DNA of 46,869 nucleotides from Candidatus Moraniibacteriota bacterium (GTDB taxonomy: Bacteria > Patescibacteriota > Minisyncoccia > Moranbacterales > UBA1568): NCBI GenBank assembly GCA_037139695.1, contig JBAXFX010000002.1, positions 1 to 46,869 of the forward strand, in the 5' to 3' direction. The notes under the pieces were generated by a model that ran no database searches, was not told the origin of the DNA, and saw only the letters and a list, made by a program, of their open reading frames with translations. Shown piece after piece: positions 1,849-35,194 of the stretch. The translations under genes and the position numbers were made by a program. Numbering within the stretch: position 1 is the stretch's first letter; the number at the start of each line of letters is the position of its first letter.

Positions 1849-3312
1849 CATTTGAGTAAAAGTCATTATTTTCGGCGCTTTTGCGATCACTGAATAGGGC
1901 ATCCTGAGGCTTGTATCTGCGATTTCTTTCCCTTCGATTTTCAGGTTCCAAAGCAGTGTTTGGAGCAGTTCGTGCTTGCGTTCCGGGTTCCTTACGAGGA
2001 ACTCTTTTTTTGCTTTGTGAGCGGTCAAAAGAATATCTTTTACCTGTTCCAAAGTTGCAGAGTCCCTTGCAGAGGAATCCAGTCCGATATTTTTGAGGTC
2101 GGCCTTGATTCCCGCTTCCTCTTGGTTGAGCTTTTGCAGTTTTGTCTGGTACGCTTCTTCCGTGATCATGGAAGACAGAAACGCATCGAGCAGTTTTTCC
2201 TGTTTCTGTTTCAAGAGGGAGAGTTGCGAAAGTAGATTGTCCCGGACAGTATTGGTCGTGCTCTTTTCAGAAAGTGAGTTTTCCTTTTTGGCGAGGTAAG
2301 CGATTTCGATCAGTTCCTCGTCAAGTGTGAGCTGGTCAAGGATCGGGGCGATGAGTTCGTCCAATACTTCGACGCGAATGTATTTCTTGTGCTGTTCGCA
2401 GTTCCCGCGCCCGTTGGTACAGAAATAGTAATCTTTGCCCTTCTTCTTCGTGGCGGTCAAAGCGCAACCGCAGACATTGCATTGTAAGAGTCCACGGAAC
2501 CGGAAGAACAGACGTTTCGATCGGGGATTGATGCGTCCGGAAAGGACCGATTGGGCATCGTCAAACATTTTCTTGGAAACGATAGGCTCGTGATTCCCGA
2601 CATAGGATTTCCCGTCACGTACCATGACCCCATGATAGAAGGGATTGATCAAAATCTTGTGAATCTTACTTCTCCACATTTTTGAGCCTGAGTCGCTTCG
2701 GTATCCCTCGCCGTAGAGGATATCCGCGATCTCCTTGGTGTTCTTGCCTTCCTGTGTGTAAAGCTCGTATACCCGGACGATGAACGGACGCAATCGCTCA
2801 TTGACGAAAATCCAGTGTGTCGCCTTGTCGTTGAGATAGCCAAGGGGCGCGAAGCTCGGCCATTCGCCCCGTTCCAGTTTCGCCCGCAAGCCACGCCGGA
2901 CATTGACGCTGAGATCGTCGACGTACTTCTTGGCCATCCCGAAATCAAGACTCATGAAAAACTTGTCGTCCGAGATATTGCGGATGACCTTTTCCCACGT
3001 TCGGATTTCCTTGATGATTTTACGATCCATGAACCAAGAAAGTTTCCCGCCGTCCATGGCATTCCGGGCCAGTCGGTCCAATTTCCAAGTGATAACCCCG
3101 TATTCGGTGCCAGAGGTCTCCATAAAGGCCATCATTTCATCAAAAACGGGCCTTCCGGGGGCTTTAGCGGACATACTCTCTACAAAGACCCTTTCGACCG
3201 TCAAGCCATCCCTGCGGGCCAATTCTTGCATTTCGGACACCTGAGAATCGATAGACAAGACCTGTCTATCCTCGCTTTCCGATGATTTCCGGGCGTAGAT
3301 GATGTACTTCAT
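1837..3312 (-). CDS. large serine recombinase (integrase type)
   Basis: The N-terminal resolvase catalytic region is YARKSSESEDRQVLSIDSQ...WKLDRLARN. A recombinase domain and a Cys-rich zinc ribbon (CNVCGCALTATKKKGKDYYFCTNGRGNCEQH) follow, then a coiled-coil tail. The last 4 codons and the stop overlap the tRNA-Gln 3' end. Confidence 0.85.
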   Translation of the reverse strand: MKYIIYARKSSESEDRQVLSIDSQVSEMQELARRDGLTVERVFVESMSAKAPGRPVFDEMMAFMETSGTEYGVITWKLDRLARNAMDGGKLSWFMDRKIIKEIRTWEKVIRNISDDKFFMSLDFGMAKKYVDDLSVNVRRGLRAKLERGEWPSFAPLGYLNDKATHWIFVNERLRPFIVRVYELYTQEGKNTKEIADILYGEGYRSDSGSKMWRSKIHKILINPFYHGVMVRDGKSYVGNHEPIVSKKMFDDAQSVLSGRINPRSKRLFFRFRGLLQCNVCGCALTATKKKGKDYYFCTNGRGNCEQHKKYIRVEVLDELIAPILDQLTLDEELIEIAYLAKKENSLSEKSTTNTVRDNLLSQLSLLKQKQEKLLDAFLSSMITEEAYQTKLQKLNQEEAGIKADLKNIGLDSSARDSATLEQVKDILLTAHKAKKEFLVRNPERKHELLQTLLWNLKIEGKEIADTSLRMPYSVIAKAPKIMTFTQMLGR

Positions 3313-3529
3313 AACGTATCGCTAACATATCCGGGAAGGACGAATAAATCAAGGACGCTCTTGGCAAGGAGGGGTTGCTATGACAAAAGTATTTCCATTG
3401 CTTCGCTTCACCGCACAACATAAATCTCTCTTTGTAAATAGTCAATTATGGCTATTTTAAGCAATAATATCATTTTGCGTCACAAAACGTGCTGATGTGT
3501 GCATATAGGCAAGACAGTGCATGTGCCGA

Positions 3530-3652
3530 TACCACGACCCCCGCCTTGAGCGTCAAGGGTACGCCTGCGGGCAACCCGCAGGCCTCGGACTCCCTTGACC
3601 CTCGGCTTGGTCCGTGGTCAAACACCTGTATGGGCTAAAGCCCATCTTTTAC
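3530..3652 (+). ncRNA. candidate structured small RNA (GC-rich multi-helix element plus terminator hairpin)
   Basis: P1 is ACCACGACC (3530-3538) paired with GGTCCGTGGT (3609-3618). Internal hairpins are CCTTGA-GCG-TCAAGG and CCTGCGGG-CAA-CCCGCAGG. ATGGGC-TAAA-GCCCAT follows and is trailed by CTTTTACTT. No ORF is present. Confidence 0.3.
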
Positions 3653-3656
3653 TTCG

Positions 3657-3905
3657 TCACTTGTAACCGGAGGCAGGGAAGTCGGGTGGAGACAGGGGAA
3701 GGTCGGCGAAGAAATCGTAGAATTTCGCCAAGCTATCCAAGTACAGGTCGGCATCATCATCGGAGATCGTCAAATCAAAGCATTTTTGAAAATGCCCGAT
3801 GATCCGTTGTCTCAATTCTTGGCTGAACTTGTACGGCATGCTCTCAGAAAACTGCTCTGAGAAACAAAAAAAACCAACCCTTGGAAAAAGCTGGTTATTC
3901 GACAC
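3657..3905 (-). CDS. small acidic hypothetical protein (likely starts at ATG 3839; possible recombination accessory factor)
   Basis: The ORF is 82 aa, or 60 aa from MPYKFSQELRQRIIGHF. It sits directly upstream of the serine recombinase on the same strand. No recognisable motif. Confidence 0.4.
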   Translation of the reverse strand: MSNNQLFPRVGFFCFSEQFSESMPYKFSQELRQRIIGHFQKCFDLTISDDDADLYLDSLAKFYDFFADLPLSPPDFPASGYK

Positions 3906-4091
3906 AGTATTGATTGAAAGATCAATCTAGGCCAAACAAGTCTTTTCCCTGAAACAGGTATTCCCTGATTAAAGGTTTGTTTGCCCTAAATTGAGATCGG
4001 AAGTATAAAAATGCGCCGTTGATCAATCGGCTGGGCGATATATCGGAAGGGTGATTTTCAAGTTTCCGTTGGTACGATAGGCCCCATATTC

Positions 4092-4625
4092 CTATTTGTC
4101 AAGACTCAGCCTTATCCGATCATTCAGATCCTGTCGATCATATGACGGCATAACCGGAACGTGAAGCAGCGGAAGGCCGGCGCTTGAAAATGCATTATTG
4201 AGAAAAGAATCTCGGATCATCCTTTTTGTTTCACGATGTGATGAATCATCTAATTCGATTGCAATCATCGGTTTCATACTTTCTTTTTCGCAAAGCAGAA
4301 AATCTATGTGTTTTGATTGTATCTTGTTGAATGATGATGCAAATTGACTTTTACTCAGTCCGCTAGGTACAGTGAGGATCTCTAAGAGGCTCACTTGAGA
4401 AAATATCAAATAGTCGTTTCCGACAACTTCCTGCAAAATAGAGAAAAACTTCTTTTCTGCCTGAGTTAAGAGAGAATCTTTTTTAAGATACCGAATGTCA
4501 TCGTGAGGTTTCTTTTCTTTTAAGAAAACAATCGATATTTTCAATACGATTACGATTATTGAAAAAATCAGGAGCAGGAGAAACGATTGTGAGAAAATCA
4601 TAGGAATATACAAAAAAGGTCCCAC
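4092..4625 (-). CDS. membrane-anchored DUF2726-like (restriction-endonuclease-fold) protein
   Basis: There is an N-terminal TM helix. The segments LTQAEKKFFSILQEVVGNDYLIFSQVSL and SKHIDFLLCEKESMKPMIAIELDDSSH match the DUF2726 pattern as I recall it. Confidence 0.6.
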   Translation of the reverse strand: MGPFLYIPMIFSQSFLLLLIFSIIVIVLKISIVFLKEKKPHDDIRYLKKDSLLTQAEKKFFSILQEVVGNDYLIFSQVSLLEILTVPSGLSKSQFASSFNKIQSKHIDFLLCEKESMKPMIAIELDDSSHRETKRMIRDSFLNNAFSSAGLPLLHVPVMPSYDRQDLNDRIRLSLDK

Positions 4626-4808
4626 GACGGTGACAACCCTTTCGGGCCATCCAATAGCCTTTCGACTATCGACCTAAGCAATAAGTACCGGTCGTGAGAC
4701 CGTTTTTATTGCTTAGGGTTTCAGGCCATGCCATAGCAGAAGCTACGGTTTAGGCCTATAATTCAGTTGTTGTTTGTATTTTGCTCTAATTTCGCTAAAA
4801 AATCAAAT

Positions 4809-5585
4809 ATGGAAGATATCAATTTGAATGATTTACTAGAGCCACTCTTCAAAGAGGCTAAAGATGTTGATGAGTTCGAATTTTGTTGTTGCATTTTACG
4901 CATGAGGGGAAGTGAAGGGCCAGGATGGGACCCTTTACAAGAAAGTGCTAAATTTATAAGTCAGATAGCTAGTCTAATTGATGCTCCTATAGACAACGAA
5001 TTAAAAATTAGATTGTCGTTGCTATTGTATTGTCATGCAACTGAAATTGACGACGTGTATTTAACAATTGCAAATCTGTTTAGAATAATCAAGGGCGATA
5101 GGTATGGTAGCGCAATTTTTAAGAAGAAAGATGAGGAAGGAAAAAAAATTAAATACCCGAGTCAAAAAATATCTGAGATAAAAAAATTAGCTCAGGACTC
5201 TAAATACGAAAATATTCCGGAAGTAATGGAATATTTTCTTGAAAAAGAAATCAGGAATGCATTCTATCACTCAGATTACATTTTATATGAAGATGCTTTC
5301 AATATTCGAAATGGAGCGGGCGTTTTGATGAATGGAATTATCGATCCATCAGTTCCATTAGCGTGGTTCATGCCAAAAGTCAGGCTCGGAGTTGAATTTT
5401 CTATTGAGGTAATCAATTTGATACAAAAAAGTATCCATTCATATCGTAAAGAAAAAGTCGTCAATGCAAGGATTTTACAAAACGAGGAAATTGATCCAGT
5501 TCTTTCAACTGTAAATCCAAAATTTGGATTGAGCGGATTTCGATCATTGACGGAAGAGGAAAAGGCATCCATGAAGAAAAAATAG
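4809..5585 (+). CDS. hypothetical protein with RNxxxH (HEPN-like) motif
   Basis: ATG at 4809 lies within the ORF 4767..5585. The motif EKEIRNAFYHSDYI (R149-N-A-F-Y-H154, nt 5253-5270) fits the Rx4-6H HEPN signature seen in Abi_2/AbiD-type proteins. The gene is AT-rich. Confidence 0.55.
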   Translation: MEDINLNDLLEPLFKEAKDVDEFEFCCCILRMRGSEGPGWDPLQESAKFISQIASLIDAPIDNELKIRLSLLLYCHATEIDDVYLTIANLFRIIKGDRYGSAIFKKKDEEGKKIKYPSQKISEIKKLAQDSKYENIPEVMEYFLEKEIRNAFYHSDYILYEDAFNIRNGAGVLMNGIIDPSVPLAWFMPKVRLGVEFSIEVINLIQKSIHSYRKEKVVNARILQNEEIDPVLSTVNPKFGLSGFRSLTEEEKASMKKK

Positions 5586-5652
5586 CACTCCTTTTGTCAG
5601 CAAATTTATTTGTTATGGTTATTAGAAAAATGGCTTATCTCTGAGAAATATA

Positions 5653-5695
5653 CTGTCCAACTTCATCCCACAGACACAGCTACGTCGTTCGTGAA
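5653..5695 (+). repeat. 43-nt direct repeat, copy 1
   Basis: CTGTCCAACTTCATCCCACAGACACAGCTACGTCGTTCGTGAA matches 7666..7708 at 38 of 43 positions. It lies 68 nt after the stop of the 4809..5585 gene. Confidence 0.8.
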
Positions 5696-5835
5696 TGCCG
5701 TGAGTATATATCATACATATCAGTTTGCTCTGTTGGCATAAGAAAACAGCCCTTCATAATGAGGGCTGTTTATTACTTTAATTGTTATTGTGTTAATCGT
5801 TTGGGCTAGATTTACATGTATCTTTATGAATTGAG

Positions 5836-6213
5836 CTAACCTTTCTCTGTCGCGAGATCCATCAATACGGCGTGAATATCCTCTCCGAAGTCTGCTATAT
5901 TTTTTGGCTGTATTTGCGTAAAAGGAATCCAGCGTGGTTTCCCTGATTCGAGATCATCAACATTTTCATCTGAAACAAGATTCGTAGATTCCGGCCGACA
6001 AAGATAGAAAAAAAGGAATGCATGATACGCCTCATCAAGTGGCTGATAATAGAAGAAATTCTCACGAAAAAAGAGAAATCGTTCTACAGAAACTTTTAAT
6101 CCTGTTTCTTCTTCGATCTCCCTTCGGAGACCATCCTCGATACGCTCTCCGATTTCTATGCCACCACCAGGAAGCCATAATTTCCCATTCCCTTTGTTTC
6201 GGAGAAAAACCAC
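5836..6213 (-). CDS. Nudix hydrolase (small, single domain)
   Basis: Canonical Nudix box GGGIEIGERIEDGLRREIEEETGL. Confidence 0.8.
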   Translation of the reverse strand: MVFLRNKGNGKLWLPGGGIEIGERIEDGLRREIEEETGLKVSVERFLFFRENFFYYQPLDEAYHAFLFFYLCRPESTNLVSDENVDDLESGKPRWIPFTQIQPKNIADFGEDIHAVLMDLATEKG

Positions 6214-6430
6214 TTTACCATCAGCAACAATCAGACCATAAACGCTTGGACGAAAAAAAACTTCTCTCGGGGGAGAGTCACTATCTGATCAAAATTATTT
6301 CGGCAAGTGATCGTAGTCATAATTCAAAAAATTACTTAATAGCAATATTATAATACTAGCTTATACGAGCCATTAAAACAAGAAGTGCCGCCATTGATTT
6401 AAATGACAGCACTTAATAAAGTTGAGCGAT

Positions 6431-7020
6431 CTAACAACAGCTTTCTGTTCTGACAAAACATAATTGATCATCCGGGCCACCTGTAGAAGATATTGACCCA
6501 GATATGCAACCACCGTAACATCTTTTCATGTAGTGGTCGCATTTTTTACATTTCACATGTTCTAATTTTTGAAATCCTCGAAGAACAGTAGAGTTTCTCC
6601 AGAGAGTCTCAAAGCCCTGCTCGAATACATTGCCACAAAAATACGTATCTCCAGAAAATCACAAGGAAAGAAATCTCCGCTAAAAGCGATGAATCCATTC
6701 TTTCGTGCCGGACAGGGAGAATTAAAATCCATAGAGTGATGATAAGTCGCTTTCTCCCCGAGGACATCGAAGTATGTCAGCAGAGTGATGCTAGGATGAG
6801 CCATCCGAAGATTCCCTATCTCCTGAACAACTTGATGCATGATAGCACTGTCTATAGCATTCTCTTGATTGAAATCGGCATGTTTTCCCACGGGTCTAAA
6901 TGGAAGATAACTCACATCAGAACCAAATCTATCCGCTAATTCGGCAACATGACCAATCACGCTCGCAGTCTGTTTGGAGACAACCGTATTTATCCGTCGT
7001 TTTATCTCAGTCTGACCTAA
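6431..7020 (-). pseudogene. radical SAM / SPASM-domain protein remnant (N-terminally truncated and frameshifted)
   Basis: ORF 6562..6960 encodes the middle part (VSYLPFRPVGKHADF...SPCPARKNGFIAFSGDFFPCDF). The SPASM Cys-rich C-terminus EHVKCKKCDHYMKRCYGGCISGS...DDQLCF is in a different frame at 6431-6560. No CxxxCxxC N-terminal domain is present. The reading frame runs into the repeat at 7027. Confidence 0.7.
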
Positions 7021-7026
7021 TCTTTC

Positions 7027-7105
7027 GGCACTGGTACCCGATTAGGTTGGTGAAAGTGCTTCTTTTAGGCTAGGATAAAGTCAGAATTGACGTTTTATTT
7101 TCAAA
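7027..7105 (+). repeat. partial, diverged copy of the MITE-like element left end
   Basis: GGCACTGGTACCCGATTAGGTTGG plus about 55 further nt align with 8837-8915 (GGCACTGGTTCCCGATGAGGTGG...). This copy abuts the truncated radical SAM remnant. Confidence 0.7.
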
Positions 7106-7108
7106 TTA

Positions 7109-7137
7109 TTGACATATTGTCAACATTCAGATATTAT
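7109..7137 (+). promoter_or_regulatory. sigma70-like promoter with embedded palindrome
   Basis: TTGACA (7109-7114), a 17-nt spacer and TATTAT (7132-7137). The -35 is part of the palindrome TTGACATATTGTCAA. Confidence 0.55.
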
Positions 7138-7189
7138 TCTCTGTTAGCTTTGTAAGTTTAATATATCAACACTAAAACAGGAGGGAGAC

Positions 7190-7567
7190 GTGAAAAAATC
7201 AAGTGTCGTAAAAAGGGTATGGGATCAGATTATTGAATGGTATGAATCGCACGCCGAAGGTCTGTACCTGATTATAATGATTCTCGTCATCTTTGCAGCT
7301 ATCATGGTGACAGTGTCTGGGGTGTGGTATCCGTTGCAAACACTCATTATCTGGACGGTAATCCTCATAGTCTTAATGCTACTTCTCTTACCTCTGATGG
7401 GTATGATGGAAATTGGGTGCGTATATGGAATATTAGTTAACCTCATTGCCGGAGTATTGCTGGTAATCGGATGGGTCTGGTTTCTTGTATCAGGTGGTCA
7501 TGACGGATTCGGGGCGAGCCTGTGGTCACACATAGTGCAATTTCTTCTCGGCTCCCCAAGAAAGTAA
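7190..7567 (+). CDS. small multi-pass membrane protein
   Basis: GTG start is preceded by GGAGGGAG. The 125-aa product has 3-4 hydrophobic helices. Confidence 0.6.
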   Translation: MKKSSVVKRVWDQIIEWYESHAEGLYLIIMILVIFAAIMVTVSGVWYPLQTLIIWTVILIVLMLLLLPLMGMMEIGCVYGILVNLIAGVLLVIGWVWFLVSGGHDGFGASLWSHIVQFLLGSPRK

Positions 7568-7665
7568 CCTGATGATTGTCATAATAGAACGAACTGCATA
7601 TCGCAGCTCGTTCTTTAATTTTTCACAGATATGCGGGTAATGTTTTTAGTGTGATTTGAAACATT

Positions 7666-7708
7666 CTGTCCTACTTCGTCCCACAAACACAGCCACGTCG
7701 TTCGCGAA
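7666..7708 (+). repeat. 43-nt direct repeat, copy 2
   Basis: CTGTCCTACTTCGTCCCACAAACACAGCCACGTCGTTCGCGAA. It lies 99 nt after the stop of 7190..7567 and contains the palindrome GTCGTTCGCGAACGAC. Confidence 0.8.
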
Positions 7709-7869
7709 CGACATGGCCAGTCTAGTCATTCGAGAACGACAGGACTCTGCCTCGGAATATAATGCCGGAAAAGGTACATGACTATTTTTGTTGGTCTGTC
7801 TGGACCTTTAGTCATATTCGCATAAAATTCAAAGGCCCAAGTGATGTGTTATCACGAGGGCCTTTACGC

Positions 7870-8607
7870 CTACTCCGAACTAAATGCGACTTTCATCTGT
7901 CTGACTTCTTCGGCGAGATCCTCCCGTTCAGGAAGAAAGCGCAGGAGTACCTCCAAGGCATCGGACAGATAGTGATTCTCGATGTTCTTGACTACGACTT
8001 CCAGAACGGCCTGAGGATTGTTCACCTTCAACTCCTCAGCTTCGTCGAAGTGCCTATCATATAGAAGCTTCTTGTAGTGTGACAGGATATATTCCTCCGC
8101 AGGTACACCCAACTCGCGCGCAAGCTCCGCTTGTCTTACGGACCCAACATCATAACTTTGCAAGACTTGTCTGGCCAGTTCCGTCTTTTCAGCTTGCGTA
8201 ATCGTAAACTTCGGACTTTCCCGAACTTTTTCCCAGTAGGAGGAAGCGCAAAGAAGGATTCGATATATCAGTTTCTCGATATCGCGTCGTATGTCTGAGT
8301 CACTGATATACTTGCTTACCCAGTCGAGTTCCGCCGGTGATACGACCTCGCCTCTTCGTGCTGATTCCTCACAGAACGACCGGAAGCTCTCATACATTTC
8401 CTGATCGCCTATTGAATCTACGGCATCGGGGCAGTGGCTGATAATATCGTCCAATGCCTTACGTTTTTGAAACTTGAATGCGTTCTTCCCCGAGACTACA
8501 AAAAGAAACGCTCTTTTGGTCAGTTCCTGAAGTTCCTTCTCGCTCAGGTTGTTTTTTAGAACCTTCAAGCGAATCCATGGATTACGAATGCTTTCGATCA
8601 ATGTCAT
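7870..8607 (-). CDS. hypothetical protein (all-helical)
   Basis: The 245-aa ORF has RBS AAGGAGA upstream of the ATG and its own consensus promoter. No recognisable motif. Confidence 0.65.
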   Translation of the reverse strand: MTLIESIRNPWIRLKVLKNNLSEKELQELTKRAFLFVVSGKNAFKFQKRKALDDIISHCPDAVDSIGDQEMYESFRSFCEESARRGEVVSPAELDWVSKYISDSDIRRDIEKLIYRILLCASSYWEKVRESPKFTITQAEKTELARQVLQSYDVGSVRQAELARELGVPAEEYILSHYKKLLYDRHFDEAEELKVNNPQAVLEVVVKNIENHYLSDALEVLLRFLPEREDLAEEVRQMKVAFSSE

Positions 8608-8762
8608 TATTTCTCCTTGCGCTTTGAGTCCGTCGACTTATTTGTTATCAAAGAAAAGCCTTTTCCGGCTTGCTACTTCCATGAGCAGCATACAAGATAC
8701 CATTCACCTGATATCAAGAATGCCACTCACGACACGAAAAAATGTTCATACAACGACACAGT

Positions 8763-8791
8763 ATAATATCACAAATAATTTATCGTGTCAA
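8763..8791 (-). promoter_or_regulatory. sigma70-like promoter of the 7870..8607 gene
   Basis: On the minus strand: TTGACA (8786-8791), a 17-nt spacer and TATTAT (8763-8768). Confidence 0.6.
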
Positions 8792-8819
8792 CATCAAGTA
8801 CACCACATCAAGTACACCA
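8792..8819. repeat. perfect tandem 14-mer x2 immediately upstream of the -35
   Basis: CATCAAGTACACCA occurs at 8792-8805 and again at 8806-8819. Confidence 0.85.
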
Positions 8820-8836
8820 CCCATTTCCAAATTTTC

Positions 8837-9165
8837 GGCACTGGTTCCCGATGAGGTGGCTGAGAATCCCTCTTTAGCACTAAGATAAGCACAGAATCGA
8901 TGTTTTATATTTGTAAAAAAGCCCCGCTCATAGTCACAAATCCCCCTTGCCCTCTCTTTTTTGGAGAGGGCAATCCCCCTTTCCGAAAGGGGGAGACTCA
9001 CTTATTTTCACTGGTACTCTGATTGATATCTCCCTTTTGCAAAGGGAGTACCGAGTCTTCGAGGGGAGGGATTTGTGTTTGATCGGTCGAAGTCAGCATG
9101 TCGTTTTTTTAAGGATATGTCGAGTAAAATATCTTTAAGAAACCACCTCATCGGGAACCAGTGCC
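8837..9165. mobile_element. MITE-like non-autonomous element (329 bp) with perfect 23-bp terminal inverted repeats
   Basis: GGCACTGGTTCCCGATGAGGTGG (8837-8859) is the exact reverse complement of 9143-9165. The interior has no ORF but three C/T...A/G hairpins (8949-8971, 8975-8993, 9030-9048). A 19-bp direct repeat CACCCATTTCCAAATTTTC occurs at 8818-8836 and 9181-9199. Confidence 0.65.
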
Positions 9166-9504
9166 TGATTTTTACTACAACACCCATTTCCAAATTTTCA
9201 CCCCGCCACCAGTGAACCTTCCTGATTCTCAGTCAATACTTCGCGCAATCTCAGTCTTCCCTCCAAAAGAAGCTCATAGAAGATCTTCATCCCACGAAAC
9301 GAGAGGAAACGGATCTTCCGTTTCTTTCGAAGATACCGTATGACTGCGAAAGAAAATGCGGATGTCATACTCACCCAGCGTGTCATGATCGTGAGCGGGG
9401 AATGGACCAATATGATGAATGAGGATGAACGATGGTGGGGCGAGTGAGTCGAAAAAATACTGCCGGCAGGGTATGCGCGACAGTATACGTACGTCATTGT
9501 TTTG

Positions 9505-22088: not shown

Positions 22089-23252
22089 CTACGATATGAC
22101 GCTGTCGTCGAACTCTTCGATATCGCGCGTCTTCTTGATCGTGAGCGACACGGATTCCTTGTCGGGAAGCTTCGCGGCCTCGACCGCTTTTCGTGCCGGG
22201 ACGGGGAGTATGGGGAGAATCCCCCGAAGCGCCGTCCCATCAATCTTCCGTATTTCATCCCATTTGTCAAGGGGGGTGAGGATCTCACGGAGCTTGTCCT
22301 CGTCGTATTTCCATGTCCGACGGACCGATTTCCCGACGATGCCGGAGGAACCGAAGACACGGTCCACCGCCTTTTCCTCCATGTAGTGCAGGAGCGTTTC
22401 CTGAAGTCCGGCAAAGCGGGCCTTGTCGCTCTTCATCCTGTCCCGGAGTGCGAGGATCTCCTCGATCGAAGCCTGCGCTGTCTCGTCCTCGACCGCTTTT
22501 TCCTCGAGGAATTTGTGCTTCCAGAAGGGGCAGAGCCGTTGGTACCCACAGTAATCGCACAGCGGCGTGAGGATAGGTTCGAATTCTCCGGCATCGATAT
22601 GGGCGATAGTCTCGAGAAACTGTGAATCGAGGGCGTCGAGCTGCTCACGGGTGCGCGTCGAGGAAAGTTTCACGCCATGACGGAGGTAGTACAGACTGAC
22701 GGTGATCCGGTCGAGGTGTTCCGTCTCCTTCGGGTAGCGGCCAAGGAACGCCCGGAGGTAGATCGAGAGCTGGAGATCGTTATCGACCTTCTCCTGTGAG
22801 GGCATCTTGCGCGCGGTCTTGTAGTCGATGATTTCGAAGCCGTCCGGCGTCGCGTCGATGCGGTCGATCGTGCCGGCGATGATATGTCGGCCCGTCTCCT
22901 CGTTTCCGATTTCGAGGGCGAAGCGACTTTCGAGGTCGACGATGGTGAAGTCATTCGGATCGTTTTTGTGGTAATAGTCCGAGATGATTTTCACGCCCTG
23001 TGAAAACGCGGTGCGCTCCGTGACCTCGTCGTCGTAGAGGTCGCTGTTCCAGATCTGGGAGAACTGATTGAGCGCCGCATCGAGCGAGGGTTGCGTGGGT
23101 CCCGGCGTATGAATATAGCGGAGAACGGAGTGGATAATCGTCCCGAAGACCTGTTCTTTGGACTTCGGTTCCTTTATCCGGTCGACATACTGGAACCGGT
23201 ATTTGAGCGGACAATTTTTGTAGGCCTCGAGGCCGGAGTAAGAGATACGCAT
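22089..23252 (-). CDS. PD-(D/E)XK nuclease with Cas4/AddB-like Cys cluster
   Basis: N-terminus is MRISYSGLEAYKNCPLKYRFQYVD. The core is GTIDRID...FEIIDYKT. The C-terminal Cys triad is CDYCGYQRLC, followed by an extra domain of about 130 aa. Confidence 0.75.
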   Translation of the reverse strand: MRISYSGLEAYKNCPLKYRFQYVDRIKEPKSKEQVFGTIIHSVLRYIHTPGPTQPSLDAALNQFSQIWNSDLYDDEVTERTAFSQGVKIISDYYHKNDPNDFTIVDLESRFALEIGNEETGRHIIAGTIDRIDATPDGFEIIDYKTARKMPSQEKVDNDLQLSIYLRAFLGRYPKETEHLDRITVSLYYLRHGVKLSSTRTREQLDALDSQFLETIAHIDAGEFEPILTPLCDYCGYQRLCPFWKHKFLEEKAVEDETAQASIEEILALRDRMKSDKARFAGLQETLLHYMEEKAVDRVFGSSGIVGKSVRRTWKYDEDKLREILTPLDKWDEIRKIDGTALRGILPILPVPARKAVEAAKLPDKESVSLTIKKTRDIEEFDDSVIS

Positions 23253-23408
23253 AGGAAGGAGTTTAACAATCGACCCGCTGCGCTTCCGTCTTACGGAGTG
23301 AGCGGACCCCGCTCGCCAAGACGAACGGACAGGAGACCGGATAATAATGAATCAGCCGTATTCTCATTTCCTATTGTAGCAGAAAATGCCGCTCACATGA
23401 GTTTGACA

Positions 23409-23417
23409 TGATATAGT
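23409..23417 (+). promoter_or_regulatory. extended -10 promoter-like element (copy 1 of 16-mer GACATGATATAGTAAA)
   Basis: TGATATAGT fits TGnTATAAT, with TTGACA immediately 5'. The 16-mer at 23405-23420 repeats at 23660-23675. Confidence 0.35.
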
Positions 23418-23663
23418 AAACGTGTCTTTATATTGATTTCTTGATTTCAGCGGGGGAGGGAGTGTATTTGAAAAGCGATGGCAGAGGGCGAGGCATCGGC
23501 ATGTCAGTCTTGGTGATCGGAGGAAAGATCGTCCTGGGCATAGATTCTTCATCGGGGAGCGACCGTCATCGTGTGTTTATTTTTCAAAACGGTTATTTAT
23601 ATTTTGCTTTTTATAAGCCTCTTTTGTATTTATAATATGTCGCATTATGTAACTTATGCGACA

Positions 23664-23672
23664 TGATATAGT
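23664..23672 (+). promoter_or_regulatory. extended -10 promoter-like element (copy 2)
   Basis: Same TGATATAGT. It overlaps the 3' arm of hairpin ATGTCGCAT (23637-23645) / ATGCGACAT (23656-23664). Confidence 0.35.
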
Positions 23673-24001
23673 AAAAAGAATCATAAACAAGATATCACGA
23701 AGTGACACCGGGGTTCCCGCACAAACGCTCCTGTCTGATTTTCCATTATCCTTATAGAAGAGACTATGTTTATCATCCTTATTCGGTTCATATTACCCCG
23801 CATCCGGCTCCGTATGCGATGTCGTTATCATTCATCACGACGGGTATTCGATGTGGAATACGAAGGTGATTCGGATCAGTCGGCCTCTGCGGCGTGTACC
23901 GGTCGCTCGACATAGTGTTGATCCGACATTTCTTATCGAATGTTCCATCACGCCAGGAACACACTTCTCCACAATGCGCGAGGACCGTTTGTGCTGGCCA
24001 A

Positions 24002-24504
24002 GGTGGTACCTGATGTACCCTGGATATGGTTGGTGTTTTAAAATTTCGTAATCCTAAAAGACGACCAGTCGGCATGAATCGATAATGAGGACGAAGTGAG
24101 TGGCATGCGGTGGTACCTGATGTACCCCCTTCGGGGTCGAATTTCTGATTTCGTAAAGCAGACAATGAGTATCCCCTTCCATTTTTCAAAAAATATTCGC
24201 ACGGGATACATGGGCCGGAATTTTTCGGCGGACCGTTCATGGATGCGTGATATTCGGGAAAGGACGCCGAACTTTCTCGAAATGAACGTCCTATGGTGGT
24301 ACCTGATGTACCCTTTATACGGTCGAATCTTTGATCTTTCAAAACGGACATGGAACATCTCATCCGTTTTACACCTCATGCCCTCCCCTCCTGTTTTTGA
24401 AAAGCGGCAAGGGGAGTGCGTCGTATTCTAAAATCATGAAACGGACAGTTTCCGGTGGTACCTGATGTACCCCTATGATATCGGATTTCTGATTTCTTCT
24501 TTTA
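24002..24504 (+). repeat. four-copy diverged tandem array with invariant 19-mer GGTGGTACCTGATGTACCC
   Basis: The 19-mer starts at 24002, 24109, 24295 and 24454 on the same strand, spaced 107, 186 and 159 nt. Each copy is followed by a variable 9-nt segment and a T-rich block (consensus TCGAATTTCTGATTTC). Distal parts of the units are also recognisably homologous. Confidence 0.85.
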
Positions 24505-24557
24505 AAGACAGACCGATGTCCGGCTTTTCGGACATTCGTATCGGATGCGTCGATCAT

Positions 24558-25253
24558 TCATTTCAAGAGTCTCGGAGCGGAAGAAAATCCTCCAGTCTTC
24601 GGTCCGGAAGAAAGTGGTTTCATGGAGGTTCCCGTGGTCGGCAAAGAAGAGCTTATCGGCTTGGGGCCGGACTGCCGTTGTGGTGACTGATTCGGATGAT
24701 GCGATACGTAGGACTTTCCGAAGGACTGTTCGGCCACCTGCCGATTCTGAACGGAAGGGGACGCCGAGAACGGAACCAGGCCTTTCATCGGAGCAGAGGC
24801 TTGAGATGATACTTGTCGATCTTTCGCGCTATTCGATCCCGTCACATATTTCCCAGTCCGATGTGCCTTGTAAATCTCCCGCATCTGCTGACGCTTGAAT
24901 GACGCGGTTGATTTCGATGTCTTGAGCATCGATTTCTCGGTCCTGATGGCTTCCGACCGAGTCAACTCCCCTCTCTCCTCCATTTTCTTGATAATACCGG
25001 TAGCATCCTTCTCGGTCAGCCCGAAGAAATCCCCTGTTCTTGAATGAAGCTTGCCACCACCCGCCTCATAGAGTTCTTTTCCGAGCTTCATCCGTTCGGA
25101 ATATTTGAGAGTGGCTGCCAATTCGGGAGTCTTTTTCAGGAACGCGTCCGCGACACGGTATTCTTTCCCGTTTTTTCCAAGATTTTTTACATCCTTCCAC
25201 TGAAGGATCGTCCCGTCCCGATTCGGTCTTTTCCCGAGAACGTATACGCTCAT
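24558..25253 (-). CDS. hypothetical protein with disordered Ser/Pro/Gln-rich C-terminus
   Basis: 231-aa ORF with backbone-like composition. No motif recognised. Confidence 0.55.
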   Translation of the reverse strand: MSVYVLGKRPNRDGTILQWKDVKNLGKNGKEYRVADAFLKKTPELAATLKYSERMKLGKELYEAGGGKLHSRTGDFFGLTEKDATGIIKKMEERGELTRSEAIRTEKSMLKTSKSTASFKRQQMREIYKAHRTGKYVTGSNSAKDRQVSSQASAPMKGLVPFSASPSVQNRQVAEQSFGKSYVSHHPNQSPQRQSGPKPISSSLPTTGTSMKPLSSGPKTGGFSSAPRLLK

Positions 25254-25271
25254 AAGGTATATACGGTATGG

Positions 25272-25748
25272 TTATCCGAACAGCCTGTCCATAATAGTCC
25301 TCGGCTTGGCGGCCGAAGCACCCGCCTCTTCTGTTTCGATAGTCTCGACATCCGCGGCTTCCATCTCATGGACGGGCTTCGGCTCTTTCACGAGCTCCGG
25401 CTCCTTCTCTTTTTCTTCGGGCGTTTCCGGATAGGTGAAGTATTTCGGATCGCGGTTTTCCGTCAATAACGCATCGGCGATGCGTTCGACACTCCCCTTC
25501 GAAAGCCGGGAATTCTTCTCGGCATAGAGTTCGCCGAGGACGGCGCGAAGCGTGTCTGAATCGAGTTTCCCACGTTCGCCGACATGCGATCGGATGCTCT
25601 CGAAAAACGCTTCCTGTCTCGGCTTGTCGAGCAGGACGGAGGCGATTTTCGGATTCTTCATGAGCTCGACCATCGCGGGACTGGTCGAACATTTTTTCGA
25701 CGGGCTCCCCTGGAAGAATTCCTTGTCGAGAATGACCGTATTCCTCAT
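25272..25748 (-). CDS. hypothetical protein with acidic C-terminus
   Basis: 158-aa ORF on the same strand and closely spaced with its neighbours. Confidence 0.55.
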   Translation of the reverse strand: MRNTVILDKEFFQGSPSKKCSTSPAMVELMKNPKIASVLLDKPRQEAFFESIRSHVGERGKLDSDTLRAVLGELYAEKNSRLSKGSVERIADALLTENRDPKYFTYPETPEEKEKEPELVKEPKPVHEMEAADVETIETEEAGASAAKPRTIMDRLFG

Positions 25749-32434: not shown

Positions 32435-34021
32435 ATGAAAAACGTCACCAAGAGACAAAAGCAGATACTTGACTTCATTCAGGAATACATCACGGCGAAT
32501 GGCATATCCCCAACTATCGACGAGATCAGAAAGGAATTAAGGCTCCGATCAAATTCAACAATTCATCAGCATATAGCAATGCTGAAAGGAAAAGGCCTTC
32601 TAGAAAAAAATACCGGGTTGGCAAGAGGAATAATACCAAAGAAGGTTCCAGGATTTACCGTTGGCATACCGATAATCGGAAAGATAACCGCTGGACAACC
32701 GATAGAAGCGATCGAAACCGAGTGGGAACTCATCCAGGTTCCAAGGGAGGGGTTAAAAAATCCAAAGGACTACTATGCTCTCCATGTTTCAGGAAACAGT
32801 ATGATTGATGAAGGCATTTTTGATGGTGACATTGTCGTTATCAAGCGACAGTCTGTTGCAGAAAATGGCCAAACGGTTGTCGCAATAATAGATGACAACG
32901 AGGCGACATTAAAGAAAATCTATAGGGAAAAATCAAGATTTCGACTAGAGCCACGAAATCAGATGCTATTGCCTTTTTATAGAAAAGAAGTGGAAATCCG
33001 AGGAGTTGTCGTACAAATAATCAGAAACATTTCCCAACAAAAAAATATTGATACGCCTTCAAAAAAGAAATCGTGCAAATTTCGGACCCTTGATCTATTC
33101 GCTGGAATCGGTGGCATTCGGATCGGATTTGAAAAAGCCGGATTTGAAACGGTATTCGCCAATGATTTCGAACCGCATTGCAAAGAAACGTACGATTTGA
33201 ACTTCAAGAGATCAAAACTTATCGTTGAAGATATTCGGAAAATAGGGATCGCTGATCTCCCAGAATTCGACTTTCTCCTCGGAGGATTTCCTTGTCAGGC
33301 ATTTTCAATCGCGGGATACCGAAAAGGCTTTCAAGACGAAAAAGGTCGCGGAAATTTATTTTTTGATGTGGCTAGGATAATCGACGCCAGAAAACCGACC
33401 GGCTTTCTTCTTGAAAACGTGAAAAATCTCAAAAGTCACGACGACGGGAAAACATTTAAGATTATCGAACGGACTTTGCTGGATCTTGGCTATCACATCA
33501 AGGTCAAGGTGTTAAACAGTATGGAATACGGAAACGTTCCGCAAAACAGAGAGCGGATTTACATCGTCGGATTTAAAGATAAGGATTATTGTGATAAATT
33601 CTCTTTTCCTGAGCCAAAAAAACTATCCGTTAAAATAACCGATTTGCTCGAAAAGAACGTGCCTGAAAAATATTACTATAACGGAAAACCACTTTTTGAA
33701 AAATTGAAGGGTTTTGTAAAAGAAGAGGGCCGGGTGTATCAATGGCGAAGACAGTATGTCCGAGAAAACAAAAAAGGTGTTTGCCCCACACTGACCGCCA
33801 ATATGGGAATGGGTGGCCACAATGTCCCTATCGTTAAGGATAAAAAAGGAATCAGAAAAATCACGCCCCTTGAATGTGCCAGACTTCAAGGATTCCCACT
33901 AAACTATAAGCTCCCGAAGATAGCAGATTCGGCTCTTTATAAGCAATTTGGAAATTCTGTCACGGCAACCGTCATTGAGGCAATCGCGAAACAGATGATG
34001 AAAGCCGTAAAAAACACTTGA
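32435..34021 (+). CDS. LexA-like repressor (wHTH + S24 autopeptidase) fused to a DNA (cytosine-5) methyltransferase
   Basis: Residues 1-200 align with E. coli LexA as I recall it: GIPIIGKITAGQP (Ala86-Gly87), VSGNSM (Ser122), ATLKK (Lys160) and IRGVVVQIIRN. Residues 216-528 carry C5-MTase motifs FAGIGG, GFPCQAF (Cys287), ENVKNL, QNRERIYIVG and QFGNSV. It is a single uninterrupted ORF. Confidence 0.85.
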   Translation: MKNVTKRQKQILDFIQEYITANGISPTIDEIRKELRLRSNSTIHQHIAMLKGKGLLEKNTGLARGIIPKKVPGFTVGIPIIGKITAGQPIEAIETEWELIQVPREGLKNPKDYYALHVSGNSMIDEGIFDGDIVVIKRQSVAENGQTVVAIIDDNEATLKKIYREKSRFRLEPRNQMLLPFYRKEVEIRGVVVQIIRNISQQKNIDTPSKKKSCKFRTLDLFAGIGGIRIGFEKAGFETVFANDFEPHCKETYDLNFKRSKLIVEDIRKIGIADLPEFDFLLGGFPCQAFSIAGYRKGFQDEKGRGNLFFDVARIIDARKPTGFLLENVKNLKSHDDGKTFKIIERTLLDLGYHIKVKVLNSMEYGNVPQNRERIYIVGFKDKDYCDKFSFPEPKKLSVKITDLLEKNVPEKYYYNGKPLFEKLKGFVKEEGRVYQWRRQYVRENKKGVCPTLTANMGMGGHNVPIVKDKKGIRKITPLECARLQGFPLNYKLPKIADSALYKQFGNSVTATVIEAIAKQMMKAVKNT

Positions 34022-34027
34022 TAGTGA

Positions 34028-35194
34028 TTAATCTTCGGGTTCCTCTTTAGAAGTCTGATTTTCGCCAGTAAATCTTTCAAATGATCCGATCTTTGTAAAA
34101 TCAATATCGTATTTTCCCTCTTCGTTCTTGTATAATACGACCGAGTCAAGGCCGATTCGGCGAAGTTTGTCATATGTGAGCAATTCCCGTTCTTTGAGGT
34201 TGAGAACATCCCGTAGCAACCAATTCCCAAGAGCGGAATTCGGATTGCTCATAAGCGCCTTCGAACCGTCTTGGCATACTTTTGCACTCATTTCTGAACC
34301 GTTCGGAAGCAATAATATGAAGGGTATATCCCGTGGTGGAAAAAATCCAGGAAACTTGTCGTGAATCCACGAGGGAATCCTAATATAGACTTCGTCTGAT
34401 ACTCGGGCACGACCACCGGCATTCCATTGATTCAGACCGCTTTTCTCCGGCACCAGCTTCTCTCCTCCTTTCATTGAATACAACGGTAAATAGACATACT
34501 CACGAAGCCTTGACTCCGATTGAACCAATCCGTCTTTTGTTTTTCCGAACAATTCAGCTAAGACGTCGAAAGGATTCTCTAAAATTTCAACGGGGAAATC
34601 ATATAGAATGGATGCGGTGGAAAATCGCTTATAGAGCGTACTCTTCGTCACGTTGAAAGCGTATTCATTCAATCCATCTTCAAAAGAAATGACGTTTTTT
34701 GAGGATTGCCGTATATCTCGCATCGCATCCAACTGTACCGCATGCATCGGGGTTTCATACACGAGTATCCCCTTCTCTTTTCGCGTTACGCAATGATAAA
34801 TCATTTCATCCAATCCAAATATCCGTTTTGTCGTCTCCAACCGTTCATTTCTCAATTCCGCGACCTTTCGCAACTTTTCTTCACCGCTAAGATCCCTGAA
34901 TAACGAGTGTTCACTATTAAATTCCGCTATTTTCTGTAGCGTCGAACCATTTTTCTCAAGAAACGTCTTTATGCCTATACCTAAACCAGCTTTTGAAGCA
35001 TCGGCAGAGCAGTCCGTTCGTGAAAGATTTTCAGCATTAAAGGATTTACAGAAAAGATTTTCCGCTATCCGATATTGAATATATGGCTCATTGCTTTCGG
35101 AGAAAAGACGAGAAAGGGCACCTACTGTTTTCAGCATTTTCAAATAATACTGAATTTTTTCATCATCCTGTGTATTGAGAAACATACGTCTCAC
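34028..35194 (-). CDS. putative type II restriction endonuclease with B3-like (pseudobarrel) C-terminal DNA-binding domain
   Basis: It converges on the MTase with 6 bp between the stops and shares its low GC. The N-terminal half has a PD-(D/E)XK-like segment SADASKAGLGIGIKTF. The C-terminal segment VSDEVYIRIPSWIHDKFPGFFPPRDIPFILLLPNGSEMSAKVCQ...LGNWLLRDVLNL follows the B3 pattern known from EcoRII-N and BfiI-C. The likely start is ATG 35185. Confidence 0.55.
   Translation of the reverse strand: MRRMFLNTQDDEKIQYYLKMLKTVGALSRLFSESNEPYIQYRIAENLFCKSFNAENLSRTDCSADASKAGLGIGIKTFLEKNGSTLQKIAEFNSEHSLFRDLSGEEKLRKVAELRNERLETTKRIFGLDEMIYHCVTRKEKGILVYETPMHAVQLDAMRDIRQSSKNVISFEDGLNEYAFNVTKSTLYKRFSTASILYDFPVEILENPFDVLAELFGKTKDGLVQSESRLREYVYLPLYSMKGGEKLVPEKSGLNQWNAGGRARVSDEVYIRIPSWIHDKFPGFFPPRDIPFILLLPNGSEMSAKVCQDGSKALMSNPNSALGNWLLRDVLNLKERELLTYDKLRRIGLDSVVLYKNEEGKYDIDFTKIGSFERFTGENQTSKEEPED

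Follow-up and report, generated by a model that had tools for sequence, protein, structure and literature searches.

The locus described here raises a simple question: what is the role of a 19-mer, GGTGGTACCTGATGTACCC, which stands in four exact plus-strand copies inside a gap of 1.3 kb (positions 23253-24557) between two minus-strand genes? By the window we mean the whole stretch of DNA that was analysed, 46.9 kb in length; homologs of the PD-(D/E)XK nuclease that flanks the gap are annotated as Candidatus Moranbacteria. The answer depends as much on what lies beside the 19-mer as on the 19-mer itself, and the features on which we draw are collected in Table 1.

Table 1. Features of the gap and its borders (window coordinates)
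Feature	Position	Strand	Remarks
PD-(D/E)XK nuclease gene	22089-23252	-	borders the gap on the left
Extended -10-like element TGCTACAAT	23373..23381	-	conserved block ATTGTAGCAGA in close relatives
Promoter-like TTGACA-N18-20-TTTATATT	23403..23434	+	reads toward dif; back to back with TGCTACAAT
KOPS-like polar motif GGGGAGGGAGT	23453..23463	+	left side, toward dif; conserved in all aligned relatives
Second left-side GGGGAG	23554
dif-type site ATGTCGCATTA-TGTAAC-TTATGCGACAT (11-6-11)	23637..23664		28-bp near-palindrome; most conserved element of the gap
19-mer copy 1 (A box; first unit of array)	24002-24020	+	exact match
19-mer copy 2 (A box)	24109-24127	+	exact match
19-mer copy 3 (A box)	24295-24313	+	exact match
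19-mer copy 4 (A box)	24454-24472	+	exact match
B box, unit 2, TCGAATTTCTGATTTCG	24137..24153	+	9 nt 3' of the 19-mer
B boxes, other units	24031-24048, 24323-24339, 24481-24497	+	equivalents of the unit-2 box
E box, unit 3, GAAATGAACG	24279..24288	+	6 nt 5' of the 19-mer
E box, unit 4, GAAACGGACA	24438-24447	+	equivalent of the unit-3 box
C module, imperfect palindrome CCCTCCCCTCC-TGTTTTTGAAAAG-...GGGGAG	24381..24416		weaker copy at 24171-24207
Hairpin ATGTCCG/CGGACAT with partly U-rich minus-strand tail	24516..24535	-	terminator scan and sequence reading
231-aa ORF	24558-25253	-	borders the gap on the right

A dif-type site and the probable replication terminus

The dif-type element of the gap is a neighbour of the 19-mer and not the 19-mer itself. 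Like known dif/Xer sites, it spans 28 bp in an 11-6-11 arrangement with dif-like inner arms and centre (CGCAT.A-TGTA..-TTATG). Aligned with the E. coli dif reference, GGTGCGCATAATGTATATTATGTTAAAT (PMC3025954), it agrees at 18 of 28 positions, and the version found in locus L059, ACGTCGCACAATGTATATTATGCGACGT, agrees at 19 of 28, 13 of them contiguous. The same study recognizes dif sites by complementary inner arms (positions 7-12 versus 17-22), with a threshold of "more than four" pairs. Relatives of the window form five of the six pairs, and the window site forms four of six, a value at the edge of that threshold which we counted as sufficient. The site is nearly invariant, centre included, in five aligned relatives. 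Some 35 loci have it near a PD-(D/E)XK gene, the encoded proteins being as little as 44% identical. Neither the window nor any related locus has a second copy, and in distant clades the site lies between convergent genes. Unlike those of E. coli dif, the arms of the window site are almost identical (10 of 11 positions as inverted repeats). Because the two arms are so nearly identical, they suggest a single-recombinase system, with the logic of XerS, XerH or XerA, rather than one that uses XerC plus XerD. A scan of about 30 window ORFs revealed no tyrosine recombinase.

Two further features of the surrounding DNA change sign at this site. Among the 16 loci that offered at least 5 kb on each side, the cumulative GC-skew maximum fell 2-256 bp from the dif-type site in 11; the maximum of the window is 1.2 kb from the site and coincides with the far edge of the array. 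In most loci GC skew is positive to the left of the site and negative to its right. Over 436 kb of sequence, AGGGGAG is oriented toward the dif-type site in a ratio of 117:5, and in the window GGGGAG occurs 12 times on the plus strand and 4 times on the minus strand to the left of the site, versus 1 and 11 times, respectively, to its right (Fisher p=6e-4). The PD-(D/E)XK genes are directed away from dif, and within them GGGGAR is antisense in 27 cases and sense in 5 (p=1e-4); it is thus the replichore, rather than the strand of the gene, that its polarity follows. In this regard, the motif resembles KOPS, the polar sequence (GGGNAGGG in E. coli) that orients FtsK: GGGGAG(G/T) is G-rich, strongly strand-skewed, and directed toward the dif-type site from both sides independently of gene strand. 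Unlike KOPS, it is assigned through polarity statistics only, and its length and exact consensus are undefined. Position 23453 has the form GGGGAGGG, as does position 24388 on the minus strand.

The dif-type site sits, as dif/Xer sites do, at the GC-skew switch between converging polar motifs. Because it falls where GC skew changes sign and GGGGAG flips strand, we consider it very probable that this gap, with its dif-type Xer site, is where replication of a Candidatus Moranbacteria (Patescibacteria/CPR) chromosome terminates. A full-text literature search for dif/Xer in CPR/Patescibacteria found no paper that describes these for Candidatus Moranbacteria. The assignment would locate the terminus, the dif-type site and the KOPS-like GGGGAG for this group, and the site and motif together may provide a practical landmark with which to orient and check CPR genome assemblies.

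A preliminary description of this DNA, made from the window alone, had missed both the terminus context and the nearby dif-type site.

The 19-mer and its composite unit

That description had reported four exact, same-strand 19-mers, and this was borne out: shuffled sequence gives a chance expectation of 0, and no further match with up to 3 mismatches was found in the 46.9-kb window. The four copies stand inside 560 bp, approximately 340 bp from the dif-type site, with start-to-start spacings of 107, 186 and 159 nt. The reported drift of the flanks was likewise found. Mean identity over aligned columns is 100% inside the 19-mer versus 47% in the 40 nt upstream, 56% at nt 1-30 downstream and 48% at nt 31-90. 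That the four copies are identical while their flanks have diverged, and that about seven related genomes keep the 19-mer, supports the earlier proposal that selection acts on the 19-mer itself.

The 19-mer is accompanied by further boxes at constant spacing, while the linkers vary. A semi-conserved TCGAAW plus T-rich block (B box) follows at a fixed distance of 8-10 nt in 18 of 18 family members, and an E box recurs 6-7 nt upstream of the non-first units in the window, in L003 and in L017. The minus-strand GGGGAGGG within the C module points toward dif, and equivalents of this module (ACTCCCC...GGGGAGT) recur in the arrays of relatives. We propose that these elements make up a composite unit, in the order E box (GAAATGRACG), 6-7 nt, A box (the 19-mer, as the presumed sequence-specific core), 8-10 nt, B box (TCGAAW plus T-rich), often then followed by a GGGGAG-containing palindrome. 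The starting state may have been a short spacer between convergent genes, as in other Moranbacteria; duplication of the composite unit would have expanded this spacer to 1.1-1.3 kb on one side of dif.

Distribution in relatives

The 19-mer family is confined to close relatives, with 1-4 copies each, and is exact or near-exact in about seven genomes. In these, side and orientation relative to dif are the same for every copy, and the distance from dif is 250-900 bp; no copy in either orientation was found on the other side over 23 kb in the window and 10 kb in relatives. A unit profile and a degenerate pattern matched only beside dif in approximately 700 kb of related loci, and both species-representative MAGs that carry the exact 19-mer contain it once per MAG. 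A scan of a genome collection with the 19-mer returned seven matches, two of which are syntenic Moranbacteria-type loci. The other five are coincidental coding matches, as they lie inside a conserved Thermoplasmata ORF (peptide GWWYLMYPHD). The preliminary description had also considered a dispersed element of the REP/PATE kind, which is contradicted by the restriction of the motif to this locus across the window, the related loci and two whole MAGs.

Within this narrow range the array is variable. Copy number in close relatives is 4, 3, 2, 1 or 0, with mosaic modules, and the 19-mer is absent from L014, the nuclease of which is 79% identical; for this reason the motif appears to be young and dispensable. 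Distant clades carry a palindrome, GATACAT-NN-ATGTATC, 28-41 bp from dif (L020, L026 and L022) or TACATC-containing motifs (L025, L037 and L043, with the reverse-complement match GGTTGGTATAGATGTAT in L037/L043). These are suggestive of distant versions of the 19-mer, in 2-3 clades only and with an inconsistent orientation relative to dif. Since the possible distant versions appear palindromic or inverted relative to dif, they weaken the case for a strictly polar function.

Flanking genes and other content of the gap

Relatives do not conserve the mechanical ORFs within the gap, and their homologous regions are rich in indels. One of them (23788-24363, minus strand) is a called gene on a public contig; it has no Pfam match, and the 19-mer repeats within it are read in differing frames. 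ARAGORN found nothing in the gap. On the left, TGCTACAAT is probably the promoter of the PD-(D/E)XK nuclease gene. The TTGACA element behind it, which is kept in seven relatives at a near-constant 219-250 bp from dif, is promoter-like and a putative promoter only. On the right, the minus-strand hairpin is likely to be the terminator of the 231-aa gene and its operon. The 231-aa ORF and the adjacent 158-aa ORF have no match in Pfam, NCBIfam or the PDB sequences.

Alternative explanations

A tandem family of small RNAs, or a transcript processed into several units, was among the readings offered in the preliminary description, and we retain it as an alternative that we consider unlikely. The 19-mer would then possibly serve each unit, at its 5' end, as a conserved single-strand seed, a processing site or a site for a protein. 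The array does resemble Qrr- and LhrC-type multicopy sRNAs in that same-strand tandem units are clustered and share one invariant short block while the remainder drifts; moreover, a T/U-rich tract follows each 19-mer, and a long precursor could arise from the conserved TTGACA element on the left of dif, which is directed at the array. Genes of the Qrr and LhrC types, however, each have their own promoter, an intrinsic terminator and conserved stem-loops, none of which is detectable in the 19-mer units. A consensus scan of 24000-24560, covering sigma-70-type signals only, found no promoter before any unit, and no unit is followed by a plus-strand terminator-like site; the only terminator-like match in the array is the minus-strand hairpin of the 231-aa gene. 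Nor did the earlier picture of two mutually exclusive helices with a terminator-like tail withstand comparison of 18 family units. The 5-bp GGTAC/GTACC helix shows 0 compensatory changes, with 73% of cells paired and 27% unpaired (no better than shuffles), and RNAalifold predicted no consensus pairs, so that pair counting and consensus folding both failed to support a structure by covariation. Of the second hairpin, ACCCC/GGGGT, what stands is a true 5-bp helix in copy 2, which the other copies lack. The array as a whole folds no better than shuffles on the plus strand (z=-0.69), albeit slightly better on the minus strand (z=-2.06). Rfam returned nothing relevant for the whole window at gathering thresholds or for the gap at E<=10, and the window holds no complementary target with up to 3 mismatches. 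A translated product seems far less probable still. Here translation of a family of very short peptides would start from the 19-mer (GGTGG, 6 nt, ATG-TAC-CC), an idea prompted by the ATG that the 19-mer contains at a Shine-Dalgarno-like distance from GGTGG, and by three relatives that give MYPSYESNF, MYPSCDSNF and MYPSCDSNFLILQF, each ending in a stop, with mostly third-position differences. Yet the ORFs that begin at this ATG run to 3, 5, 6, 9, 9, 12, 14, 41, 54, 73 and 103 codons in different copies, the four window copies share M-Y-P only, the L003 variant copies encode MYT and a stop, the conserved B box is read in differing frames, and GGTGG is a poor match to the GGAGG Shine-Dalgarno sequence. 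With no conserved ORF and such inconsistent lengths, we agree with the preliminary description that a conserved peptide is improbable. It had argued from the reading frames, which do differ between copies, but only because the linkers of 8-10 nt after the 19-mer shift the frame; copies 2, 3 and 4 are themselves spaced by multiples of 3. A decayed repeat protein on the minus strand was considered and rejected, since two of the copies read GTSGTT and the remaining two VHQVPP.

We think it rather doubtful, somewhat more so than for small RNAs, that the units are relics of a small selfish or integrated element beside dif, left by Xer-mediated (IMEX-like) integrations or by local amplification of the terminus. 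The 19-mer could in that case be the element's own recombination or replication site, without a host function. Such an origin would be in keeping with extra DNA on one side of dif only, with content and copy number that turn over rapidly among close relatives, and with the single orientation that all units share; in our alignment, the 19-mer also agrees with the left arm and centre of dif at 10 of 17 positions (TGATGTACC versus TTATGTAAC). What argues against it is that the DNA between the units contains neither another dif-like site nor a Xer arm, that the units are gene-free and 107-186 bp in length, and that the 19-mer is strongly constrained both within and between genomes, which decaying relics would not show. 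An IMEX with duplicated dif sites was rejected for want of a second dif-like site; the best pseudo-site (at 23795) agrees at 16 of 28 positions, approximately the level of chance. No related sequence was found in viral contigs, and the dif-like core has no viral match. A link to phage or attP was discarded, since the 19 viral-contig matches of a 17-mer proved to be collagen-like or VPDVP coding repeats.

The array as putative protein-binding DNA

The best explanation overall, to which we assign a probability of roughly 40%, is that a terminus gap has acquired an array of asymmetric protein-recognition sites. Our view of the 19-mer as a putative protein-binding site is correspondingly tentative, although it is the best of several options. 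An array of sites for a DNA-binding protein fits best of the three readings in the preliminary description, but conservation is asymmetric (GTGG..A..T is invariant and the right half is variable), and the data thus do not point to a symmetric dimer on the dyad. We propose that a lineage-specific, asymmetrically binding protein may read the 19-mer as double-stranded DNA, and that the same-oriented copies would form a polar nucleoprotein array flanking dif. Most plausibly, such an array would act on machinery that tracks along DNA and reaches the terminus (replisome, FtsK or SMC), or would help to organise this region, as Ter, matS or XDS sites do. No candidate for the binding protein was found among the neighbouring ORFs, which have no Pfam or NCBIfam match.

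Two further observations run counter to parts of this proposal. Within +/-23 kb, copies of the 19-mer occur on one side of dif only, unlike the two-sided arrangement of known fork traps. The 231-aa gene is missing beside the arrays of two array-bearing relatives (L017 and L018), which speaks against a reader encoded by that gene.

Comparison with known terminus and repeat systems

The sites to which the 19-mers are most readily compared are the Ter sites of replication fork traps, bound by Tus in Enterobacteria and by RTP in Bacillus (PMC10331603). Like these, the 19-mers are short, noncoding, oriented, clustered at the terminus, conserved in sequence and asymmetric; no sequence relationship with Ter sites is established. 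In known fork traps, opposed clusters of sites flank the terminus and extend over tens to hundreds of kb, and one site has the tus or rtp gene beside it (PMC10331603). The four 19-mers, by contrast, stand within 560 bp on one side of dif with no opposed cluster, and the flanking ORFs that were scanned revealed no Tus or RTP domain. As with matS/MatP and XDS/XerD, the family is confined to the terminus around dif, its binding of a protein being putative. The matS sites are 13-bp palindromes spread over hundreds of kb and XDS contain a XerD-binding arm, and both exclude or unload SMC complexes (PMC11894783). Unlike matS, the 19-mers are tandemly clustered and their dyad is not conserved; unlike XDS, the array contains no recognisable Xer arm (no arm-like 11-mer with up to 2 mismatches), and the 19-mer agrees with the left arm of dif at 5 of 11 positions in our alignment. 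The direct, same-oriented arrangement of a core of ca. 16-20 bp in longer units is also reminiscent of centromere-like and iteron arrays (sopC, parC and plasmid iterons). Those arrays are regularly spaced and lie beside par or rep genes, unlike the 19-mers, with their spacings of 107, 186 and 159 nt and no such gene nearby.

As a DNA motif, the 19-mer array is oriented, strongly constrained and restricted to the terminus, and it has no known counterpart. The Ter, matS and XDS families are known from a few well-studied lineages, each with a distinct mechanism. Were the array to bind a protein, it would open terminus-site biology in an uncultivated group with reduced genomes; were it an RNA or a selfish relic, it would be a minor lineage-specific curiosity. 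A specific role as a roadblock is speculative. The array might be the cis element of a novel, one-sided polar system that stops or unloads the replisome, FtsK or SMC beside dif, but we regard this as a long shot, less likely than a selfish relic. If true, this would be the third independently evolved system of the fork-trap or roadblock type, after Tus-Ter and RTP-Ter. To our knowledge, CPR bacteria, with genomes of ~1 Mb, are not thought to possess a fork-trap system.

Other resemblances of the 19-mer were noted in passing. The L003 variants contain TGGCAC, and a sigma-54 promoter was rejected for them: judged against the sigma-54 consensus, they have no -12 GC where the canonical spacing would place it, and subfamilies differ in their spacing. 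By eye, the 19-mer also resembles sigma-28, ECF and IHF sites and the ends of insertion sequences (IS1/IS10-like). For the last of these there is no inverted partner end, and the flanks outside the motif are conserved.

A dif-type site at the replication terminus

The nuclease homologs assign the organism to Candidatus Moranbacteria (Patescibacteria/CPR). Syntenic loci were gathered through exact-protein look-up and a metagenome scan with the nuclease; a genome-collection scan with the 19-mer likewise gave two. When the gap was aligned with those of four relatives, its best-conserved element proved to be not the 19-mer but a 28-bp near-palindrome, which is invariant in this alignment, its centre included (see the table). 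About 35 loci, with nuclease identities as low as 44%, have a version of this site close to the nuclease gene. The window site is identical to the experimentally confirmed dif of Escherichia coli, GGTGCGCATAATGTATATTATGTTAAAT (PMC3025954), at 18 of 28 positions, and the version in one related locus (L059; ACGTCGCACAATGTATATTATGCGACGT) at 19 of 28, including an unbroken run of 13 across the inner arms and the centre. We are highly confident that the terminus lies in this gap and that the 28-bp element is a dif-type site. It is a new dif family member in a phylum-level group; full-text literature searching found no published description of dif for CPR/Patescibacteria. The two arms differ little from each other, a hint of a single-recombinase system; within the window, no gene for Xer was found.

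Three independent properties, namely GC skew, gene orientation, and a polar motif, assign this site to the terminus of replication. The cumulative GC-skew maximum lay 2 to 256 bp from the site in 11 of the 16 loci with at least 5 kb on either side of it, and in most loci the skew went from positive on the left to negative on the right. Distant clades have the site inside a 250- to 450-bp spacer between convergent genes. An unbiased search for strand-skewed oligomers found AGGGGAG oriented toward the site 117:5 over 436 kb; in the window itself, GGGGAG has plus/minus counts of 12/4 to the left of the site and 1/11 to the right (Fisher P = 6e-4). Within the nuclease genes, which are directed away from the site and in which G and C are balanced, GGGGAR occurs 27 times antisense and 5 times sense, so the polarity tracks the replichore and not the gene strand. 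Polarity of this kind is the behaviour of FtsK-orienting polar sequences, and by that analogy GGGGAG behaves like a KOPS motif.

Several other elements were seen in the terminus spacers. That of L017 has a perfect 27-nt direct repeat, GGGGAGTATGGAAGTGAAAAGTTGAAA, at 8967-8993 and 9446-9472 of that locus (479 bp apart), whose GGGGAG is directed toward dif, and L016 has three similar AGAGGGGAGTAG modules; the density of the KOPS-like motif in these spacers is several-fold above that of the flanking genome. The window also has two back-to-back promoter-like elements that are kept in relatives; the plus-strand one is directed toward dif with no gene to serve, at a steady 219 to 250 bp from it in 7 genomes.

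Features of the window, with positions numbered along its forward strand
Feature	Position	Strand	Sequence or remark
tRNA-Gln	1777-1849		3′ end overlapped by serine recombinase gene
Large serine recombinase gene	1837-3312	minus	
Low-GC stretch	4-9 kb		36-45% GC; next to serine recombinase gene
LOOT RNA (RF03000), full length	4632-4756	minus	80.9 bits; within low-GC stretch
PD-(D/E)XK nuclease gene	22089-23252	minus	flanks gap
Gap	23253-24557		
Promoter-like elements	23373-23434		
Extended -10		minus	TGCTACAAT; presumed promoter of nuclease gene
TTGACA element		plus	TTGACA-N18-20-TTTATATT
dif-type site	23637-23664		ATGTCGCATTA-TGTAAC-TTATGCGACAT
191-aa ORF	23788-24363	minus	spans three repeat units
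19-mer (A box), four copies	24002, 24109, 24295, 24454	plus	GGTGGTACCTGATGTACCC
ORF containing copy 4	24369-24557		
Terminator-like hairpin	24516-24535	minus	belongs to upstream operon
231-aa ORF	24558-25253	minus	flanks gap
231-aa and 158-aa ORFs together	24558-25748		
LexA/S24/methyltransferase fusion, 528 aa	32435-34021	plus	
NgoFVII-type restriction endonuclease	34028-35194	minus	adjoins fusion

The 19-mer family

The four exact copies of the 19-mer noted in the preliminary description are indeed present, spaced 107, 186, and 159 nt start to start; no further match with up to 3 mismatches was found in the window, and none is expected by chance. The drift noted in the remainder of the unit leaves just 47 to 56% identity among copies. 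An invariant core in such surroundings implies a constraint from which the rest of the unit is free, which upholds the earlier proposal of selection on the 19-mer itself. The full unit is composite: an E box (GAAATGRACG) is followed after 6 to 7 nt by the A box (the 19-mer) and, 8 to 10 nt further on, by a B box (TCGAAW plus a T-rich run), often with a CTCCCC/GGGGAG palindrome after it, the correctly oriented half of which is the KOPS-like motif. Box spacing is almost constant and linker sequences vary; the unit tails previously described as alignable correspond to its C and D modules.

From dif to the start of the array, on its right, is 340 bp. The 19-mer or near variants are limited to close relatives (about 84 to 96% nuclease identity): L003 has three copies (two being GTGGCACCTGATGTACACC), L016 has two plus two divergent ones, and L017, L018, and L002 have one each, with a second subtype, GGTGGTATGTAGGTATGYC, in L017 and L018; L019 carries GGTGGTACCTAGGTATACC. 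At 79% nuclease identity, L014 has none. In every case, all copies lie on one common side of dif in one common orientation. A unit profile (nhmmer) and a degenerate family pattern matched beside dif only; neither the rest of the window nor about 700 kb of related loci contained a further member. In the genome-collection scan, the exact 19-mer occurred once in each of the two species-representative MAGs carrying it; the remaining five genome matches fell inside a conserved Thermoplasmata ORF, and viral-contig matches were collagen-like coding repeats. The 19-mer is therefore not a generic dispersed repeat, and the suggestion of a REP-like element can be dismissed.

Farther afield in Moranbacteria, six loci (L020, L022, L025, and L026, 28 to 41 bp from dif, and L037 and L043, at 63 bp) have the palindrome GATACAT-NN-ATGTATC or motifs with TACATC, on the side of dif that carries the array in the window. 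The reverse complement of the L043 motif, GGTTGGTATAGATGTAT, is similar to the 19-mer family but inverted relative to dif. These motifs may represent the site in an older form, present as a single copy.

The relatives' homologous gap regions align in blocks only, with many indels between, and mechanical ORFs within the gap are not conserved in them. The 191-aa ORF is called as a gene in a public Logan assembly (L008, 514-1089). It has no family match, relatives do not conserve it, and its frame differs from repeat to repeat (two copies as GTSGTT, the third as VHQVPP; copy 4, in a separate ORF, likewise gives VHQVPP). The gene call is almost certainly spurious. Two conserved ORFs, with counterparts in L003, L002, and L014, adjoin the array; neither the 231-aa nor the 158-aa product has a family or PDB match. 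The former has a Ser/Pro-rich low-complexity tail, and its gene is patchy among relatives (missing in L017 and L018).

Nature and possible role of the array

The preliminary description proposed two mutually exclusive helices, one of them within the 19-mer (GGTAC-CTGAT-GTACC), and a terminator-like tail. The 19-mer dyad arises partly from the self-complementarity of GGTACC, and across 18 family members its pairing was no better than in shuffled controls: there were no compensatory changes, 27% of cells were unpaired, and the T:A pair was lost in 8 of the 18 sequences. RNAalifold returned no consensus pairs. The second proposed helix, ACCCC/GGGGT, is genuine in copy 2 alone. Compared with shuffles, folding of the array was no better on the plus strand (z = -0.69) and just slightly better on the minus strand (z = -2.06). 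None of the units is preceded by a sigma-70-like promoter or followed by a plus-strand terminator (the sole terminator-like hairpin is on the minus strand), and Rfam yielded no match at E ≤ 10. With no compensatory change, consensus fold, or plus-strand terminator, the model was rejected, and tandem or processed small RNAs seem unlikely; an unstructured RNA seed or processing site is possible. Positions invariant throughout the family (GTGG, one A, and one T) all fall in the left half, and the right half varies, which implies asymmetric, sequence-based recognition. Together, these results argue against both a structured RNA and the symmetric dimer on the dyad, and are what would be expected of a DNA site bound by an asymmetrically binding protein. 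A DNA-binding array is thus the best of the readings originally offered, though not in its symmetric form.

The array is real and constrained without structure, lies on one side of a dif-type neighbour amid polar GGGGAG at a point of the chromosome that ranks among the richest in function, and belongs to a poorly understood lineage. Its function we infer: the 19-mer would form the core of a composite site, roughly 60 bp long, to which a protein binds and which was presumably amplified via local duplication in this lineage's expanded terminus spacer. More speculatively, the same-oriented array may act on a machine arriving at the terminus (replisome, FtsK, or SMC) or anchor the terminus, in a role analogous to that of the known terminus-specific site families Ter, matS, and XDS (PMC10331603; PMC11894783). 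Several features speak against a classical fork trap: the copies are confined to one side, no Tus or RTP domain was found near the array, and the possible distant versions are palindromes or have the opposite orientation to dif. The motif is, moreover, young, being absent from L014. An origin as relics of a selfish or Xer-integrated small element is doubtful, since no second dif-like site was found and the core is strongly constrained, and a short-ORF initiation region is very improbable. Tested against REP/PATE elements, sRNA genes, XDS, and two-sided fork traps, the array fits none. It matches no known family and, in location and logic, most resembles the terminus-specific protein-binding sites.

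Additional observations

In one close relative (L013/L018), the far side of the array carries rplU (L21) and alaS instead of the window's M23 peptidase-gltX block, while the dif site and array remain with the nuclease gene, which puts a rearrangement breakpoint at the terminus spacer's outer boundary. L002 (DATMYW010000034.1, an 88.5-kb contig) is labelled Candidatus Fimivivens sp., a Firmicutes genus. Yet its dif site is of the Moranbacteria type, and it has the exact 19-mer, both a homolog of the 231-aa gene and the conserved promoter blocks besides. Either mis-binning of the contig or a wrong label on the MAG is the probable cause.

Elsewhere in the window, the stretch at 1777-9300, with its LOOT RNA, has the look of a prophage or other integrated mobile element. 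An unusual fusion that joins a LexA DNA-binding domain to an S24 peptidase and a C-5 cytosine methyltransferase lies with the NgoFVII-type endonuclease in a low-GC island (41 to 42% GC), and the two (32435-35194) may form an SOS-linked or self-cleaving regulated restriction-modification system.
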